IMG/VR virus record: IMGVR_UViG_2537562091_000002
Length of the DNA: 5,175 nucleotides
Strand: one strand, 5' to 3'
Source of the DNA: a virus
Lineage: Duplodnaviria > Heunggongvirae > Uroviricota > Caudoviricetes
Both the position numbers and the translations under genes were made by a program. Of this stretch, positions 445 to 5,175 are shown piece after piece. Positions within the stretch are counted from its first letter, which is position 1, and the number at the start of each line of letters is the position of its first letter. Under the pieces are notes generated by a model that did not search any database, was not told the DNA's origin, and saw nothing but the letters and a program-made list of their open reading frames with translations.

Positions 445-517
445 CAACACCCGATACTTTTTCCTGGCTTCCAGCAACGGGGTTTCTTCCTCCGTTGCAT
501 ATACAGCTCACCTTTTT

Positions 518-811
518 TCACCCACGATTAACCAACAGCCAGATCAGCAGACACGCCACCACCGGCACAGCAAAATCCATCAGGCTTGCCACATCCCAAA
601 CACGCGGATCAAAACCGCCCCACCACGGCATGTTAATCCGCTTGCCATGCCCGAACATTTCAATCCAGCGATATTCTGCCTGGGTGTGTTCACGCGCAAT
701 GAAGAACGTACAACCAGCTATCGCCCCATAAGCCCAGTTTCCGGTAAAAAGACCAACCAGTGTCTGCGCAGCCACAGCACAAAGCGCATGAAGAAAAGGT
801 GTTATATCCAT
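518..811 (-). CDS. Small predicted membrane protein (97 aa), function unknown; last gene of the post-fibre cassette
   Basis: ORF with ATG at 809-811 preceded by AGGAGGAG immediately after the upstream stop. Hydrophobic stretches FLHALCAVAAQTLVGLF, WAYGAIAGCTFFIA and FAVPVVACLLIWLLV flank a charged loop containing WWGGFDPRVWD. No family recognised by eye. Confidence 0.6.
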   Translation of the reverse strand: MDITPFLHALCAVAAQTLVGLFTGNWAYGAIAGCTFFIAREHTQAEYRWIEMFGHGKRINMPWWGGFDPRVWDVASLMDFAVPVVACLLIWLLVNRG

Positions 812-821
812 TACTCCTCCT

Positions 822-1526
822 TTATCTAATATCGCTTCGGGAAGTTAATAACAACTTTAATTCTGACTCAAGTTCATCAACTCTTTCAGTCAGTTTCTGG
901 ATATGGTGAATCAGTGGAACAACCAGACGTTCGTACATTACACCTTCGGCAACAAGGCCATTGCTGGAAATAGCTTCAGGAGCATCATCTTCGTTAGCTG
1001 GTCGCCAGTGTACAAACTGAGGAGCAATTTCTCCTACTTCCTCGGCAATCAATCCGTAGAATCCCCAGTCACGCCTGTCATTTTCGCATTGCGACCTGTA
1101 CCACACAGGGCGCATCCTGAAAATGAGATCGGCGTGCTCTGAATCTATTGTCTCTACTGAATGTTTATAGCGGATAGACGATGTTGACCGCAGCACAGAC
1201 GAAATTGCAGGGTCAGGATTAAGATAAAGGTTTGCCGCCGCTGTAGTCGTGGCCAAATTCCATAAATAAAACGCTTCACGACCTGTCAGTGGATAAAAAT
1301 CTCCGCCATAACGACCACTTTCCAGATCGTTCACTTCCACTTTGTTTTTCAGCTTATTATCAACTTCAGTTTTTGTGTATCTGGAGCTGATATCCTGCTT
1401 TGCACTGGTCATCTCAGTCTGAAGCGTTGATACTTTTCTGCTAATTGATGAAATATCTTCCTTAGCTTTACTGACATCCCCCTTTAGCTTGGTGATATCT
1501 CCTGGAATTACTGTCGATGTAGCCAT
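822..1526 (-). CDS. Standalone coiled-coil protein (234 aa) with a C-terminal peptidase-S74-type intramolecular chaperone domain (tail-fibre/tailspike auto-chaperone type)
   Basis: ATG at 1524-1526, with GAGG overlapping the upstream stop 9 nt before it. Residues about 10-65 show 3-4 spaced hydrophobics (heptad pattern). Residues about 116-234 (SSIRYKHSVETID...RPVWYR...GLIAEEVGEIAPQFV...YERLVVPLIHHIQKL...ELESELKLL) fit the recalled S74 IMC consensus (SDrrlK...lrPvsYrY...GliAQEv...). Confidence 0.8.
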   Translation of the reverse strand: MATSTVIPGDITKLKGDVSKAKEDISSISRKVSTLQTEMTSAKQDISSRYTKTEVDNKLKNKVEVNDLESGRYGGDFYPLTGREAFYLWNLATTTAAANLYLNPDPAISSVLRSTSSIRYKHSVETIDSEHADLIFRMRPVWYRSQCENDRRDWGFYGLIAEEVGEIAPQFVHWRPANEDDAPEAISSNGLVAEGVMYERLVVPLIHHIQKLTERVDELESELKLLLTSRSDIR

Positions 1527-1535
1527 TTTCCTGCC

Positions 1536-1817
1536 TCACATCCAGCCACGAAGTTGATGCTCAACAACAACCGCGTATTTATCGAATATTGACGATTTTT
1601 TTGCATCATTAATGATGCGCACGTTTACAAAATATCCGTCTTCCTTAACACATACCGGCTCGCCATCTTCAGTAAGTTCTCCGGTTTCTTTGTACACGTT
1701 ACCTATCACGTCAATAAGAATATCATCCTGCATCGACTCGTCATCATAATAGCCAGCACTCTTCATAAAGGCCGAAAAGTCGGCCTTGTCTGTGAATTTG
1801 ATAATTAAATCTCGCAT
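1536..1817 (-). CDS. Small acidic hypothetical protein (93 aa), translationally coupled to the fibre gene
   Basis: ATG at 1815-1817 overlaps the fibre stop (minus strand reads TAATG); GGGAGAG lies upstream. Asp/Glu-rich product (MRDLIIKFTDKADFSAFMKSAGYYDDESMQDD...). No similarity to Tfa recognised. Confidence 0.6.
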   Translation of the reverse strand: MRDLIIKFTDKADFSAFMKSAGYYDDESMQDDILIDVIGNVYKETGELTEDGEPVCVKEDGYFVNVRIINDAKKSSIFDKYAVVVEHQLRGWM

Positions 1818-3784
1818 TATATTATCTCTCCCATTTGCGCATCGGTTAATTCTTTATGCCATATTCTAAAATTCCTGATATAACCAAATAAATGACGTAA
1901 GCCGGCTGTAGTCTGGCCTCCAATCCTTATACCTGTAGCACCACTAACACTCTTCCACGTTGTTGATGCTGGTGTTGATAAAACCCCATTGCAGCCAGCC
2001 TGAAACTTGCCATCGCTTTTTATTCTATATACAGCGATAATCTTTCTTGGGTAATTTCCAGGTGGAAATGATATTGGATTACCAAATTGAACATATGGAG
2101 TTCCTACACTACCTGCTGTATTTCTGAATGCAAAAACAAAAGCGTCGTCTTTTGTTTTAAATCCTGTTATATCATAAATTCTAGGCGCGGAATTTGGTGC
2201 CATAGACCAATTTTTATTCACTTCAACCATGCAGGTTAAAGGTTTGCTGGCCATGTTATTTTTACAAGGCAATGTAACAATATCGCTTGCTCGCGTTGAT
2301 GCAACTGTATCGGAAATGATAAAAGATGATGCGCATGAGCCGCCTTCAAATTGTGGTGTCGTAACATCCAAATATTCCCCGCCCAAATAAGTTCCAGGTG
2401 AAACAGGTGGAGCAATTTGGATCTGAGAGCCAACCATATTATCAATAGCTTCAGATTGATATGTAACCTCGAAATAAATCCATCCATTAGATTCTTTCTC
2501 CGCTCGGGCGGTTATTCTTGCAGCCCCTCCTCCCGTTTTCCTAATGGACATATCTGTTATATTAAGATATGCATCTGCCAGATAAAAATATGCGGACCCG
2601 TCATATCTTTCAAATCTTATACGACATTGTATATTAGCACTATCGCTTTTTACACGACATGATGTTGTAACATACTTTTCAGTTCCAGTAACATCGACAC
2701 CTCTTCCTCCTGAAACCGCAGCGATATTCATTGTCGTATTTGTCCCAATTTTTTCGTCCTTTATTTGAAACCGCCCATAAGTAAAGCCAAACTCATCAAC
2801 ACCACTTTCTGTTATAGTTACACTTGTTGTAGCTCCCCACTTAGATGGCGTAAGTGAATTAAGATGATAGTTGGTTCTTTGTCCTTCAATCAGCAAACCT
2901 TCTCGTTCAAATCGCGGTTCGTCAACTTCAGCAACGGTTAATACTCCTGATTTATTAATGTATGTTGCACCTGATGCGCGTTTGAAGCTAACAACCTTAT
3001 CGGATGGCATTTTAATAACATCATCACCTACAGTTATTTGCTTATAACCAGGCGAAAAGCCAGCAAGCATATCCAGTGAATCGTTAAACGGTATCCACAC
3101 ATCGGGAAGCGGCTGCAAAACTTGTTTATACGGCTCCGCAGCCTGGCTTGCATACTCTCTGGCTGCGTCTTCACTTGCTTTTGCAGCCGTCTGGCTTGCA
3201 GCGGATGCTTTCGCCGAGTTAGCCGCCGCAGTCTCGCTCGCCTTTGCGTTGGTTTCACTGGTTTTTGCAGCTTTTTGACTGTTGGCTGATGCAGTGGCAG
3301 AAGAAGCCGCCGCACTTGCAGAACCAGCTGCGGCACTCTCGCTTTGGGCCGCTGCATCCTGACTGTTTTTCGCCGCAGTTTCGCTGGCTTTGGCATTCGT
3401 TTCGCTGGTCTTCGCTGCCGTCTGGCTGGACTTTGCGTTAGTTTCGCTCGTCTTCGCTGCTTTCTGGCTGTTAGCTGCAGCAGTTGCTGATCCAGCTGCT
3501 GAAGTCGCAGAACCGGCTGCCGCACTCTCGCTTTCGGCTGCTGCAGCCTGACTGCTTTTCGCCGCAGTTTCACTGGTTTTGGCATTCGTTTCGCTTGTTT
3601 TCGCTGCCGCCTGGCTGGACTTTGCGTTGGTTTCGCTCGTCTTTGCTGCTGTCTCGCTATTTTTCGCGTTGTTTTCTGATTTTTTAGCTGCTGTCGCGGA
3701 GTTTGCCGATGCAGTCTGCGAGGCCGCTGCCGCCTGTGCGCTGTTAACCTGAATCGGTTCGTGCTGCCTTTGCGGTTTCCTGAT
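1817..3784 (-). CDS. Side tail fibre protein (Stf family), N-terminally truncated remnant. Open frame 3784-1817 with no canonical start; the only start candidate is TTG at 3116-3118. C-terminal LamG/concanavalin-A-like lectin-type domain.
   Basis: Manual translation of the frame continuous with the 1817..3118 ORF stays open up to TGA at 3785-3787. Residues upstream of 3118 read ...AAKTSETNAKASETAAKNSQDAAAQSESAAAGSA..., typical of lambda Stf-type shaft repeats. The C-terminus ...IGGQTTAGLRHLFGYIRNFRIWHKELTDAQMGEII fits the LamG signature (IGG...G.IDEVRIYNRALSAEEI). Confidence 0.8.
   Translation of the reverse strand: MRKPQRQHEPIQVNSAQAAAASQTASANSATAAKKSENNAKNSETAAKTSETNAKSSQAAAKTSETNAKTSETAAKSSQAAAAESESAAAGSATSAAGSATAAANSQKAAKTSETNAKSSQTAAKTSETNAKASETAAKNSQDAAAQSESAAAGSASAAASSATASANSQKAAKTSETNAKASETAAANSAKASAASQTAAKASEDAAREYASQAAEPYKQVLQPLPDVWIPFNDSLDMLAGFSPGYKQITVGDDVIKMPSDKVVSFKRASGATYINKSGVLTVAEVDEPRFEREGLLIEGQRTNYHLNSLTPSKWGATTSVTITESGVDEFGFTYGRFQIKDEKIGTNTTMNIAAVSGGRGVDVTGTEKYVTTSCRVKSDSANIQCRIRFERYDGSAYFYLADAYLNITDMSIRKTGGGAARITARAEKESNGWIYFEVTYQSEAIDNMVGSQIQIAPPVSPGTYLGGEYLDVTTPQFEGGSCASSFIISDTVASTRASDIVTLPCKNNMASKPLTCMVEVNKNWSMAPNSAPRIYDITGFKTKDDAFVFAFRNTAGSVGTPYVQFGNPISFPPGNYPRKIIAVYRIKSDGKFQAGCNGVLSTPASTTWKSVSGATGIRIGGQTTAGLRHLFGYIRNFRIWHKELTDAQMGEII
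3240..3720. repeat. In-frame tandem direct repeat, period 189 bp (63 codons), about 2.5 copies, encoding the fibre shaft low-complexity repeats
   Basis: Near-identical blocks start at 3321 and 3510 (GAACCAGCTGCGGCACTCTCGCTTTGGGCC... vs GAACCGGCTGCCGCACTCTCGCTTTCGGCT...). The sub-motif CTTTGCGTT.GTTTC.CT.GT recurs near 3242, 3431 and 3621. Confidence 0.85.
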
Positions 3785-3791
3785 TCAGCAT
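3744..3791 (-). pseudogene. 15-codon stub (MLNQETAKAARTDSG*), interpreted as the remnant 5' end of the gene after nu1 (terminase large subunit by position)
   Basis: ATG overlaps the nu1 stop as TAATG and is preceded by AGGAGGAG. The frame stops after 15 codons exactly where the Stf-type repeat sequence begins. Too short to identify by sequence; the call rests on position. Confidence 0.35.
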
Positions 3792-4285
3792 TACTCCTCC
3801 TGCTGTAATTCCTCCTCATCATCCGCACCTGCTTCAGTCACCCGCAGGGCTATCTGATCGCGCAGATCATCAATAATGGACTGAACACGGCTCACAGCGG
3901 CAGGCTGCAGACCGCAGTCACGTTCAAGAATATCCGGTAATGTCTCCAGCACCTGCACGACCGCTTTTGCCCAGATGGCAAACTCCCGTCTGACATCACT
4001 GGCCGGAATGAGTTGTGCCGTTTCCTGTTCGAACTTAAGACGCTCACGTTCAGACTGATACCAGGCTTTGCGCTCATGCGCGTCCATTTCGCCTTCTGCA
4101 ACCGGCGGTGGTAATGCCAGAAATGCCGACACAATATCAACCACCCGATAAAGCTTGAGGTTGCTTTCATGCCCCCCTGCAACGGGTAGATTTTGCAGCC
4201 TTGCCGCAGCAGTCTGGCGATGTACACCTGACAATGCCGCCAGTTGACTGATATTCAGCGTCAGATTTTTTAACTCTCGATCCAT
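3791..4285 (-). CDS. Terminase small subunit, lambda Nu1 / Noh family (164 aa)
   Basis: ATG at 4283-4285 with GGAG 7 nt upstream. N-terminal HTH-like segment LNISQLAALSGVHRQTAAARL parallels lambda Nu1 KKQLADIFGASIRTIQNWQ. Sits about 175 bp downstream of a cosN-like site, as in lambda. Confidence 0.85.
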   Translation of the reverse strand: MDRELKNLTLNISQLAALSGVHRQTAAARLQNLPVAGGHESNLKLYRVVDIVSAFLALPPPVAEGEMDAHERKAWYQSERERLKFEQETAQLIPASDVRREFAIWAKAVVQVLETLPDILERDCGLQPAAVSRVQSIIDDLRDQIALRVTEAGADDEEELQQEE

Positions 4286-4500
4286 ACCCGCTCCAGAATG
4301 TTTTAAACATGCATCTTGCGAACAACTTTAGGCAAACGGTGTTAGTGATGAACAAAAAACAATCAGAATCGACACCATAAAAATAAAACAACTGTAATAT
4401 CAATCAATTACAGTAGTGGTGATGACGAATAAAATTTCAAAAACTAGCCTTTTTCCGCGACGCTCCCGCCCCGTGGCAGGGCCCCCCCACTGGGAGGACC
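4286..4500 (-). other. cos region: cosN-like 12-mer (minus strand GGGCGGGAGCGT, plus 4460-4471), cosQ-like sequence on the high-coordinate side, AT-rich cosB-like spacer towards nu1
   Basis: Minus strand reads ...GGGTCCTCCCAGTGGGGGGGCCCTGCCACG GGGCGGGAGCGT CGCGGAAAAAGG... Recalled lambda is ...GGGTCCTTTCCGGTGATCCGACAGGTTACG GGGCGGCGACCT CGCGGGTTTTCGC... The 12-mer matches 8/12, both nick-flanking triplets/pentamers match, and the spacing to GGGTCCT is the same. Confidence 0.55.
4391..4414. repeat. Perfect 8-bp inverted repeat with 8-bp spacer (ACTGTAAT-ATCAATCA-ATTACAGT) inside the cosB-like spacer
   Basis: Read directly from the sequence; function unknown. Confidence 0.5.
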
Positions 4501-4718
4501 CGACAGCCTGACAACCGTGACGAGCATCTGTAACAGAGCTTTACATAATGGCATGGGGATAATTCAGAAGGACATCACAGCATGCCCACACAAATTAGTG
4601 TGAGTGTCCTGTTTCTTACTACGCGCAGGACTGACGAGCATGAGGGGAAAATACGAGAAACGAAATGCCTTATCTTCAGAAATGCAGCCGGCATCCGAAC
4701 TGGACGATATTGTAAATT

Positions 4719-4757
4719 TGATCTTACCCAGCAATAGTGGACACGCGGCTAAGTGAG
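4719..4757. repeat. IS3 left terminal inverted repeat (approximate extent)
   Basis: Element terminus begins with TG at 4719; the roughly 39-bp IR length is recalled, not measured. Confidence 0.6.
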
Positions 4758-4783
4758 TAAACTCTCAGTCAGAGGTGACTCAC

Positions 4784-5083
4784 ATGACAAAAACAGTATC
4801 AACCAGTAAAAAACCCCGTAAACAGCATTCGCCTGAATTTCGCAGTGAAGCCCTGAAGCTTGCTGAACGCATCGGTGTTACTGCCGCAGCCCGTGAACTC
4901 AGCCTGTATGAATCACAGCTCTACAACTGGCGCAGTAAACAGCAAAATCAGCAGACGTCTTCTGAACGTGAACTGGAGATGTCTACCGAGATTGCACGTC
5001 TCAAACGCCAGCTGGCAGAACGGGATGAAGAGCTGGCTATCCTCCAAAAGGCCGCGACATACTTCGCGAAGCGCCTGAAATGA
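4784..5083 (+). CDS. insE: IS3 OrfA (InsE). The ORF track starts at GTG 4775; the canonical ATG is at 4784 with AGAGG upstream.
   Basis: Translation MTKTVSTSKKPRKQHSPEFRSEALKLAERIGVTAAARELSLYESQLYNWRSKQQNQ...ATYFAKRLK matches recalled InsE. The CCAAAAG slippery motif lies at about 5043-5049. Confidence 0.9.
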   Translation: MTKTVSTSKKPRKQHSPEFRSEALKLAERIGVTAAARELSLYESQLYNWRSKQQNQQTSSERELEMSTEIARLKRQLAERDEELAILQKAATYFAKRLK

Positions 5084-5175
5084 AGTATGTCTTTATTGAA
5101 AACATCAGGCTGAGTTCAGCATCAAAGCAATGTGCCGCGTGCTCCGGGTGGCCCGCAGCGGCTGGTATACGTGGT
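5080..5175 (+). CDS. insF: IS3 OrfB (InsF), 5' part only, with an apparent 1-nt deletion in an A-run (possibly inactivating, possibly a homopolymer sequencing error)
   Basis: ATG at 5080 encodes MKYVFIE in frame 1. The conserved continuation HQAEFSIKAMCRVLRVARSGWYTW is encoded from 5103 in a different frame. The window has GAAAAC where the recalled sequence has GAAAAAC. Confidence 0.7.
   Translation, partial: MKYVFIENIRLSSASKQCAACSGWPAAAGIRG

Follow-up and report, generated by a model that had tools for sequence, protein, structure and literature searches.

An AT-rich distal tail-fibre module joined to a lambdoid side-fibre shaft in a Qin-like cryptic prophage remnant

Tail-fibre mosaicism among unrelated phages was reportedly described by Haggard-Ljungquist in 1992 and Sandmeier in 1994, for the fibre tips of P2, Mu, P1, lambda and T4. 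The tip of lambda Stf resembles T4 gp37 and is assembled by Tfa. Receptor-binding domains (RBDs) have often moved horizontally, and in IrisVonRoten (Tequintavirus, Bas32), which infects K-12 with restored O16 O-antigen, Gp22 is a proximal fibre whose C-terminal domain is galectin-like and which bears the T-shaped distal fibre Gp24 (10.1101/2024.09.12.612763; PMC8594841). The T5-like phages DT57C and DT571/2 have branched LtfA/LtfB fibres, in which a tail-attached proximal fibre carries a second fibre encoded downstream, and these lateral fibres are used for O-antigen binding (PMC4728585; PMC10713586).

We analysed a 5,175-nucleotide stretch of viral DNA (IMGVR_UViG_2537562091_000002; hereafter the window), in which the gene order is the same as in the IrisVonRoten locus: gp22 (proximal fibre), gp23 (92 aa) and gp24 (T-shaped distal fibre). 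Like gp22, the window proximal fibre has a conserved adaptor and a lectin-like C-terminal domain; adaptor plus tip show 72% protein identity to the matching part of gp22 (tblastn), and the 93-aa protein encoded next is 39% identical to gp23. The composition of the two loci is also the same. However, the N-terminal anchor and shaft are of lambdoid Stf type in the window and of T5 type in IrisVonRoten, the last ~110 tip codons (about 1932-2254) differ, and the window fibre copy is, unlike gp22, a truncated pseudogene remnant. The 234-aa distal protein of the window shares the gp24 N-terminal motif and C-terminal S74 chaperone, but it aligns to gp24 (574 aa) only at these places, the first being the N-terminal ~28 residues, and lacks the Gp12-like RBD1 and the T5-like RBD2 (~340 residues). 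The likeness to LtfA/LtfB is one of concept, and the window distal protein is far shorter than a distal fibre of that type, with no recognisable receptor-binding domain.

On the lambdoid side, the intact prophages L003 and L004 carry J, lom and an stf gene of the PF08400 family ('prophage tail fiber N-terminal domain') with identical shaft and adaptor, and P0002 is an intact 687-aa form of the window fibre, including PF08400. Unlike lambda Stf, the window fibre has a lectin-like tip followed by the 93-aa and S74 genes, with only a tfa remnant. As in classical mosaicism, receptor-binding ends appear to be swapped at conserved motifs, giving compositional and phylogenetic mosaics; however, another module family is involved, and the partners are a lambdoid prophage and virulent siphoviruses of the T5-like, Nonagvirus and T1-like groups. 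The locus is an ordinary case of the well-known phenomenon of tail-fibre module swapping.

It is also what remains of a Qin-like cryptic prophage and is no longer functional. IS1 and IS3 border the region; IS1 occupies 1-444, with the InsA ORF at 114-389, and cuts the tail fibre assembly gene tfa, whose 3' remnant lies at 445..498 on the minus strand (REL606 annotation mapped onto the window). In E. coli B, a tfa remnant and pinQ lie downstream of the fibre. The syntenic relatives REL606, L003 and L007 place the fibre downstream of J and lom in the lambdoid tail cluster. In the window, J and lom are deleted and a terL remnant adjoins the shaft: a deletion joins to it the opening ~15 codons of the large terminase subunit gene (3747..3791, minus strand), next to the GC-normal right flank formed by a Nu1-type small terminase gene (DUF1441; 3791..4285, minus strand, GC 0.529). 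The joint is out of frame (MLNQETAKAARTDSG, then stop). Expression of a TerL'-'Stf fusion was considered and rejected, since the TerL ATG at 3791 is in a different frame and a stop follows after 15 codons at the joint. The open frame of the fibre does not begin until about 3784, within the shaft; unlike intact lambdoid Stf, it has lost its start codon and N-terminal anchor domain, both taken out by the terL-to-stf deletion. In a Pfam search, PF08400 was absent from the window and present in the intact homologues P0002/P0004 and L003/L004, indicating that the window fibre is the truncated remnant of a PF08400-family member. The arrangement IS1...terL'-'stf...IS3 was intact in none of 5426 complete E. 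coli genomes, where coverage reached at most 81%, in joined pieces.

An earlier note had described, by eye, an AT-richer block between about 820 and about 3120. Segmentation and the GC3 step show the block to be real, far outside the block-shuffle null. Unsupervised maximum-likelihood segmentation delimited a low-GC segment at 788..3130 (no strand) with a GC of 0.411, compared with 0.534 for 1-787 and 0.520 for 3131-5175; its right limit lies within ~10 nt, and its left limit within ~35 nt, of the one proposed. The two-change-point log-likelihood ratio was 32.8, against 6.9 +/- 2.2 (maximum 14.3) in a null of 200 shuffles of 30-nt blocks. Sliding GC lay at 0.36-0.43 along most of 1201-3100 and at 0.54-0.58 over 3101-4100, and 901-1300 formed an intermediate rise (0.46-0.50); by segment, GC was 0.412 for 822-3120, 0.562 for 3121-3784 and 0.515 for 445-821. 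The GC and codon-usage calculations that the note had proposed set the block significantly apart from its flanks, synonymous sites included, and the peptide it quoted (...ASQAAEPYKQVLQPLPDVW...) does span the step. The low GC extends, as claimed, through the 93-aa gene (1536..1817, minus strand, GC 0.408, GC3 0.43) and the 234-aa gene (822..1526, minus strand, GC 0.437, GC3 0.39), and GC goes up again to 0.52-0.53 in the 97-aa gene (GC3 0.51). The block is not uniform: GC3 reaches its minimum in the tip core (0.26), the 93-aa and 234-aa genes are intermediate, and 901-1300 goes up to 0.47.

On the GC-rich side of the step lie repeats from the shaft of a lambdoid side tail fibre, rich in Ala, Ser and Thr (3121..3746, minus strand, GC 0.564, GC3 0.486), with a 189-bp tandem repeat at 3224-3658. 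The step could be an amino-acid artefact without any foreign origin, an Ala-rich (GCN) shaft being GC-rich where a globular tip is not; indeed the shaft is 34% Ala, its GC2 is 0.65-0.68, and the step falls exactly at the boundary between repeats and globular domain. However, GC3 falls too, from 0.491 in the shaft (109/222 codons) to 0.267 in adaptor plus tip (115/431; chi-square p = 1.8e-8), and the low GC goes on through two further genes of ordinary amino-acid composition. The shaft of IrisVonRoten gp22 served as an amino-acid control: it is comparably rich in Ala, Ser and Thr (A+S+T 56%, against 62% in the window shaft), but its GC is 0.444 and its GC3 0.265, whereas the window shaft has 0.560 and 0.491. 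Amino acids alone would thus give ~0.04 of the observed 0.16 shaft-to-tip GC step, and the Ala-rich shaft composition accounts for only about a quarter of it. Amino-acid composition as the sole cause is ruled out by GC3 and this control, and we consider such an artefact highly improbable. The composition of the window tip (GC 0.40, GC3 0.27) matches that of the IrisVonRoten local genome (GC 0.40, GC3 0.26-0.30), in which non-fibre neighbour genes have a GC of 0.38-0.44 and a GC3 of 0.26-0.37.

BLAST comparisons of the tip side and the shaft side gave different nearest relatives, in agreement with the earlier prediction. For the AT-rich part, the phages that match best are virulent and T5-like. 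In IrisVonRoten, the lateral tail fibre gene gp22 is 89.4% identical in DNA over 2255-3115, and this homology ends at 3115, that is, at the GC step; it includes a tract (2401..2866, minus strand) with 97.9% identity (10 mismatches in 466), whose edges fall at ~2403 and ~2872 in the mismatch list. The same-shaft prophages L003 and L004 have 445-1895 and 2867-3746 in common with the window at about 94% identity and differ from it only in 1896-2866. What they have in common takes in the opening ~85 codons of the AT-rich stretch, which form the conserved adaptor (QPLPDVWIPFNDSLDM...EGQRTNY; 2867..3120, minus strand, GC 0.417, GC3 0.32). The adaptor is AT-rich yet accompanies the shaft in the closest prophages, and it is common to about 1400 genomes at 75-80% identity. 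The most recent breakpoint among same-shaft relatives is at ~2867 and not at the GC step at 3120, a discrepancy that tells against the exchange model favoured below. In prophage L005, where the 234-aa gene is missing, homology is limited to 445-823 and 2856-3117, breaking off at 823 on the left and 3117 on the right. Nonagvirus ESCO3 is 88.6% identical over 1462-1924 and the lambdoid phage IdasGreatGrand 93.8% over 533-1927. Together, these comparisons place internal breakpoints at ~2867, 2402, 2255, 1895-1930 and 1466-1483, positions that derive from a handful of aligned relatives and are not population-wide statistics.

The segments also differ in their distribution, counted at >=80% coverage among the 5426 complete E. 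coli genomes: the shaft (3121-3784) is found in 1001 genomes, the 93-aa and 234-aa genes in 719, alongside other tips, and the tip (1817-3120) in only 74. A single cassette covering the whole of 822-3120, gained in one acquisition and bounded by the two GC steps, would explain why both GC boundaries coincide with ends of homology in some comparisons (3115-3117 for IrisVonRoten and L005, 823 for L005). Against it stand the breakpoints inside the block, the roughly ten-fold wider spread of the 93-aa and 234-aa genes than of the window tip, and the different best phage relatives of its parts (T5-like for 2255-3115, Nonagvirus for 1462-1924). The segment-wise distributions and the breakpoints rule out this model, to which we give almost no credence. 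The earlier suggestion of a receptor-binding block exchanged onto a conserved shaft is supported in essence, but 822-3120 is not one exchange unit.

The part that distinguishes the window from its same-shaft relatives is the hypervariable tip core (1896..2866, minus strand), with the lowest GC3 (0.257) and lectin-like beta-sandwich domain(s). It comprises an NCBIfam GTA_spike_fiber part (52.2 against a cutoff of 36, aa 296-497 of the fibre) and a LamG-like C-terminal part; Pfam Laminin_G_3 scored 24.3 bits, under its 27.6 cutoff. The predicted fold of the tip is a beta-sandwich resembling known lectins and carbohydrate-binding modules (CBMs), at moderate confidence (mean pLDDT 65) in a monomer model that represents the adaptor and some of the C-terminal domain poorly. 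When the fibre was compared with PDB sequences, the only matches were low-complexity ones to Ala/Ser/Thr depolymerase shafts, none informative for the tip. Family and predicted fold suggest a putative receptor-binding function for the tip, and its ligand may be a glycan, putatively O-antigen. Members of the tip family number >2400 and sit behind N-terminal anchors of at least three kinds (PF08400/PF13620; PF12571/PF03406; none detected). In the same-shaft prophages the tip core is a diverged allele; the possibility that it is an unrelated sequence was rejected, as protein alignment revealed the same domain family with many invariant positions. The core is followed by a conserved fibre C-terminal motif (...RNFRIWHKELTDAQMGEII; 1817..1895, minus strand), its putative left recombination anchor.

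The 93-aa gene, a homologue of IrisVonRoten gp23 belonging to phrog_1361, is always next after fibres of the window type, and its protein alignment has 28 invariant columns across 5 homologues. The 234-aa gene encodes a minimal distal-fibre protein. Its N-terminal motif (MATSTVIPGDITKLKG) is conserved, its stalk is short, and aa 116-172 are a Peptidase_S74 intramolecular chaperone (PF13884; 27.5 bits, cutoff 22). The protein matches the C-terminus of phrog_3299 and that of the T5 L-shaped fibre (8hqz, E = 2.7e-6). S116 and K121, five residues apart, are invariant in the alignment; we take them to be the catalytic Ser-Lys dyad, as in endosialidase chaperones. The order fibre, ~93-aa gene, S74 fibre is kept in T5-like, Nonagvirus and lambdoid phages. 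Beyond it, the GC-normal left flank encodes a 97-aa hydrophobic protein (518..811, minus strand, GC 0.52; phrog_1443) with two hydrophobic segments and backbone composition, a region found in 1735 of the 5426 genomes at >=80% coverage. Pfam gave no match for the 93-aa or the 97-aa protein, and in PHROGs both fell into families of unknown function only.

We consider it likely that the AT-rich block is a distal two-component lateral-fibre module drawn from a shared phage gene pool, which kept a donor-like low GC and was exchanged at linking motifs into a nested mosaic. Under this model, adaptor, lectin-like tip, 93-aa gene and short S74 distal-fibre gene would together be the receptor-binding, distal end of a lateral (side) tail fibre locus with two components, and the pool would be one that lambdoid prophages have in common with virulent siphoviruses of AT-rich composition (T5-like, Nonagvirus/Seuratvirus, T1-like). 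The low GC, above all the low GC3, would be the composition of AT-rich phage genomes, conspicuous here only because the module is joined to a lambdoid Stf shaft of E. coli-like composition. Exchange probably proceeds by homologous recombination in short conserved linkers. Two of these bound the adaptor, at about 3116-3120 (start) and at EGQRTNY, about 2867-2872 (end); a third, at about 1895-1930, comprises the C-terminal RNFRIWHKELTDAQMGE motif and the 93-aa gene; the others are the distal-fibre N-terminal motif at about 1466-1483 and the point where the 234-aa gene ends (822/823). Exchange at several linkers would make the block a nested mosaic whose parts differ in age; the ~470-bp tract of the tip, which shares 98% identity with a T5-like phage, would be the youngest. 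Where the breakpoints fall suggests crossover at conserved motifs; composition, the one guide to direction, points to transfer into the lambdoid background.

However, adaptor, tip and the 93-aa and 234-aa genes are low in GC in all relatives examined. Selection on the module in every host, and not a donor trace, could keep it AT-rich, through slow translation for trimeric beta-rich folding, H-NS silencing in lysogens or the need for an AT-rich recombination substrate. Such selection would fit alleles that stay low in GC even in GC-rich lambdoid backgrounds and at 17-25% DNA divergence, and an adaptor GC3 still at 0.31 in lambdoid lineages. On the other hand, in composition the IrisVonRoten module cannot be told from the replication and tail genes beside it, so that no module-specific signal is needed in that phage; the tip alleles resident in lambdoid prophages (L003-L005) have a GC3 of 0.35-0.36, compared with 0.26 in the window tip, which in this small sample fits partial amelioration; and continuing gene flow, shown by the 98% tract, accounts for the persistence of AT-richness. 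As a full explanation selection therefore seems unlikely to us, but the AT-richness of the module in all carriers makes local AT-coding selection a possible contributor to the donor-derived composition that we favour.

The ~470-bp tract has as its partners a decayed cryptic prophage of E. coli B/C type and an obligately virulent T5-like phage. We tentatively suggest, as a somewhat doubtful extension of the module-exchange model, that the tract (about 2403-2872) reflects a very recent, possibly direct, recombination between prophage and virulent phage, with conserved motifs of the adaptor serving as universal crossover linkers. If so, defective prophage remnants would be a standing bank of receptor-binding alleles, from which superinfecting virulent phages may draw or into which they may deposit. 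The locus reveals no new principle, as horizontal RBD transfer among these phage groups is already known (10.1101/2024.09.12.612763). It provides a quantified example of tail-fibre specificity modules passing between temperate and virulent phages, in which composition records the donor gene pool, and the junctions at about 3116-3120, 2867-2872 and 1895-1930 would be practical splice points for combining lambda-type side fibres with T5-type glycan-binding tips.

All genes of interest in the window are encoded by the minus strand. An IS1 element (1-444) truncates a tfa remnant (445-498) at the left, followed by a 97-aa ORF (518-811), a 234-aa ORF (822-1526), a 93-aa ORF (1536-1817) and a tail-fibre reading frame that is open from ∼3784 down to a stop at 1817. 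Further right lie the initial 15 codons of a large-terminase gene (terL, 3747-3791), a Nu1-type small terminase gene (DUF1441, 3791-4285) and an IS3 element from ∼4714 (4714-5175). In the intact relatives L003, L004 and L007, J and lom are followed by stf (∼780 aa), then by the 93-aa, 234-aa and 97-aa genes and a tfa remnant. In the window, a deletion joint (3746-3793) connects terL', out of frame, to mid-shaft sequence of stf. Translation from the terL start codon (ATG at 3791, overlapping the nu1 stop codon) runs in another frame than the fibre and gives MLNQETAKAARTDSG-stop, and the first ATG, GTG or TTG in the fibre frame is the TTG at 3118. The PF08400 anchor domain and the start codon have both been lost. 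Because of this joint and the lack of a start upstream of 3118, the window fibre is a dead remnant. A search of 5426 complete E. coli genomes identified a Qin-like cryptic prophage in REL606 (E. coli B) matching 445-3746 at 99.97% identity, in which the PGAP annotation gives a 417-aa ORF starting at the internal ATG at window position 3070. None of these 5426 genomes contained IS1, the terL'-'stf deletion and IS3 in one contiguous arrangement, so the window may come from a Shigella or from an E. coli lineage that they do not sample. The nu1-IS3 interval (4286-4713), the expected place of a cos site and of terminase binding sites, has a lower GC content (0.456), with dips to 0.41 at 4201-4400.

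The earlier note had described by eye an AT-rich block at 822-3120, with GC rising again in the 97-aa gene, and the computed profile confirmed both observations. The GC content is 0.412 in 822-3120, 0.562 in 3121-3784 and 0.515 in 445-821. Unsupervised segmentation delimited 788-3130 at GC 0.411, with flanks at 0.534 and 0.520; the two-change-point log-likelihood ratio was 32.8, against 6.9 ± 2.2 (maximum 14.3) for 200 shuffles of 30-nt blocks. The step is also seen at synonymous sites, GC3 dropping from 0.491 in the shaft to 0.267 across adaptor and tip (p = 1.8e-8). In the downstream genes, GC3 is 0.39 (234-aa), 0.43 (93-aa) and 0.51 (97-aa). The block is heterogeneous, with GC3 of 0.257 in the tip core (1896-2866) and 0.32 in the adaptor (2867-3120), and GC up to 0.47 at 901-1300 within the 234-aa gene.

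The amino acids of the shaft must account for part of the step, since it contains 34% Ala and has a GC2 of 0.65. A 189-bp tandem repeat at 3224-3658 (2.3 copies, 83% matches) forms this Ala/Ser/Thr-rich shaft, and the plus strand shows there an extreme AT skew (-0.44 to -0.65), because the coding strand is A-rich and T-poor. A natural control is provided by the virulent T5-like phage IrisVonRoten, whose lateral tail fibre gp22 has a shaft that is also Ala/Ser/Thr-rich, with KTSETNAK-type repeats (A+S+T 56% versus 62% in the window), at GC 0.444 and GC3 0.265. With the GC3 step, it argues strongly against amino-acid composition as the sole cause. The shaft-to-tip GC step is only ∼0.04 in IrisVonRoten versus 0.16 in the window; thus, about a quarter of the step is due to shaft amino acids and about three-quarters to a real difference in codon bias and mutational bias.

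The two sides of the step differ in their relatives. At ≥80% segment coverage, the shaft (3121-3784) is present in 1001 of the 5426 genomes and the tip (1817-3120) in 74, while 719 carry the 93-aa and 234-aa genes (822-1817) and 1735 the 97-aa region (445-821). IrisVonRoten matches 2255-3115 at 89.4%, with 67 of the 91 mismatches at third codon positions, and this match stops at the GC step. Pairwise blastn and sliding identity indicated that, in some comparisons, homology ends at the two compositional boundaries (3115-3117 and 823). The proposed horizontal exchange of a receptor-binding block on a conserved shaft is supported by relatives and composition. However, 822-3120 is not a single cassette but a nested mosaic, as the most recent junctions lie inside it, at ∼2867-2872, 2402, 1895-1930 and 1466-1483. 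The prophages L003 and L004 share 2867-3746 with the window at ∼94%, as well as 445-1895 and 533-1895, respectively, and carry a diverged allele of the tip core. In the nearest relatives, the adaptor goes with the shaft despite being AT-rich. Homology of L005, another prophage locus, to the window is limited to 445-823 (95%) and the adaptor (2856-3117, 76%). The 234-aa (S74 distal-fibre) gene is missing from L005, where a 92-aa gene is directly followed by the 97-aa gene. Nonagvirus ESCO3 matches 1462-1924 at 88.6%, and the lambdoid phage IdasGreatGrand 533-1927 at 93.8%. All junctions fall in protein motifs kept across otherwise divergent alleles (QPLPDVWIPFNDSLDM, EGQRTNY, RNFRIWHKELTDAQMGE and MATSTVIPGDITKLKG), as expected if recombination takes place at conserved linkers. 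The sitABCD iron/manganese transporter genes are immediate neighbours of this fibre module in several ExPEC-type genomes (L005, NZ_CP028320.1; L003, NZ_CP098201.1).

The fibre belongs to the tail protein family phrog_1419 (E = 1e-299), and residues 296-497 of its 653-aa translation match the NCBIfam GTA head-spike-fibre domain (52 bits, cutoff 36); Pfam Laminin_G_3 scored just under threshold at the C-terminus. AlphaFold modelled adaptor and tip (431 aa; mean pLDDT 65) with a confident beta-sandwich at residues ∼85-260, the adaptor being modelled poorly as a monomer. The tip family comprises >2400 members, whose N-terminal anchors are of three or more kinds. The 234-aa protein contains a Peptidase_S74 chaperone (Pfam score above threshold) and has a match in the C-terminal end of the L-shaped fibre of T5. 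Its similarity to both IrisVonRoten gp24 (574 aa) and a 351-aa ESCO3 protein is confined to the first ∼28 residues and the chaperone, in which the S116/K121 dyad is invariant. Unlike gp24, it lacks receptor-binding domains, and in sequence it looks like a minimal distal fibre that has kept the N-terminal attachment motif and the chaperone; if self-cleaving, its mature product would be only ∼115 aa. The 93-aa and 97-aa proteins fall into PHROGs families of unknown function (phrog_1443 for the latter). The 97-aa ORF, always located between fibre module and tfa remnant in its 1735 genomes, has a backbone-like GC content and codes for a protein with two or more hydrophobic segments (residues 3-21 and 74-95), perhaps a moron acting at the membrane or an exclusion protein. 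In IrisVonRoten, which is reported to plate on K-12 whose O16 O-antigen has been restored, gp22 is described as a proximal fibre with a galectin-like C-terminal domain, bearing the T-shaped distal fibre gp24, and such receptor-binding domains often move horizontally (BASEL papers: 10.1101/2024.09.12.612763; PMC8594841). By homology, the AT-rich block of the window is the putative glycan-binding distal part of such a two-component fibre.

In composition, the module fits IrisVonRoten and is foreign to the lambdoid backbone. GC is 0.398 across the 8.8-kb IrisVonRoten locus, and GC3 is 0.26-0.37 in its genes for flap endonuclease, dUTPase, central fibre and fibre assembly, indistinguishable from the window tip, compared with 0.49-0.62 for the lambdoid backbone (lom, nu1, shaft and 97-aa gene). 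GC is low in the adaptor, tip and 93-aa/234-aa genes of every relative examined; selection for AT-rich coding may help to keep it so, as a minor contributor. In a small sample, lambdoid-resident tip alleles not close to T5-like sequences have a GC3 of 0.35-0.36 versus 0.26 for the window allele, which is compatible with partial amelioration. On these compositional grounds, we infer that the lambdoid fibre received the module from a pool of AT-rich virulent siphoviruses.

Taken together, the interpretation of the earlier note is supported with these refinements, and the AT-rich block is a textbook case of tail-fibre modularity in a decayed prophage. Identity to IrisVonRoten reaches 97.9% over 2401-2866 (10 mismatches in 466; tract edges ∼2403 and ∼2872) and falls sharply on either side, to 83% (2867-3115) and 73% (2255-2400). 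Such an identity points to genes having moved very recently between virulent phages and prophage remnants, and 98% over ∼470 bp between a prophage remnant and an obligately virulent T5-like phage is mildly notable.
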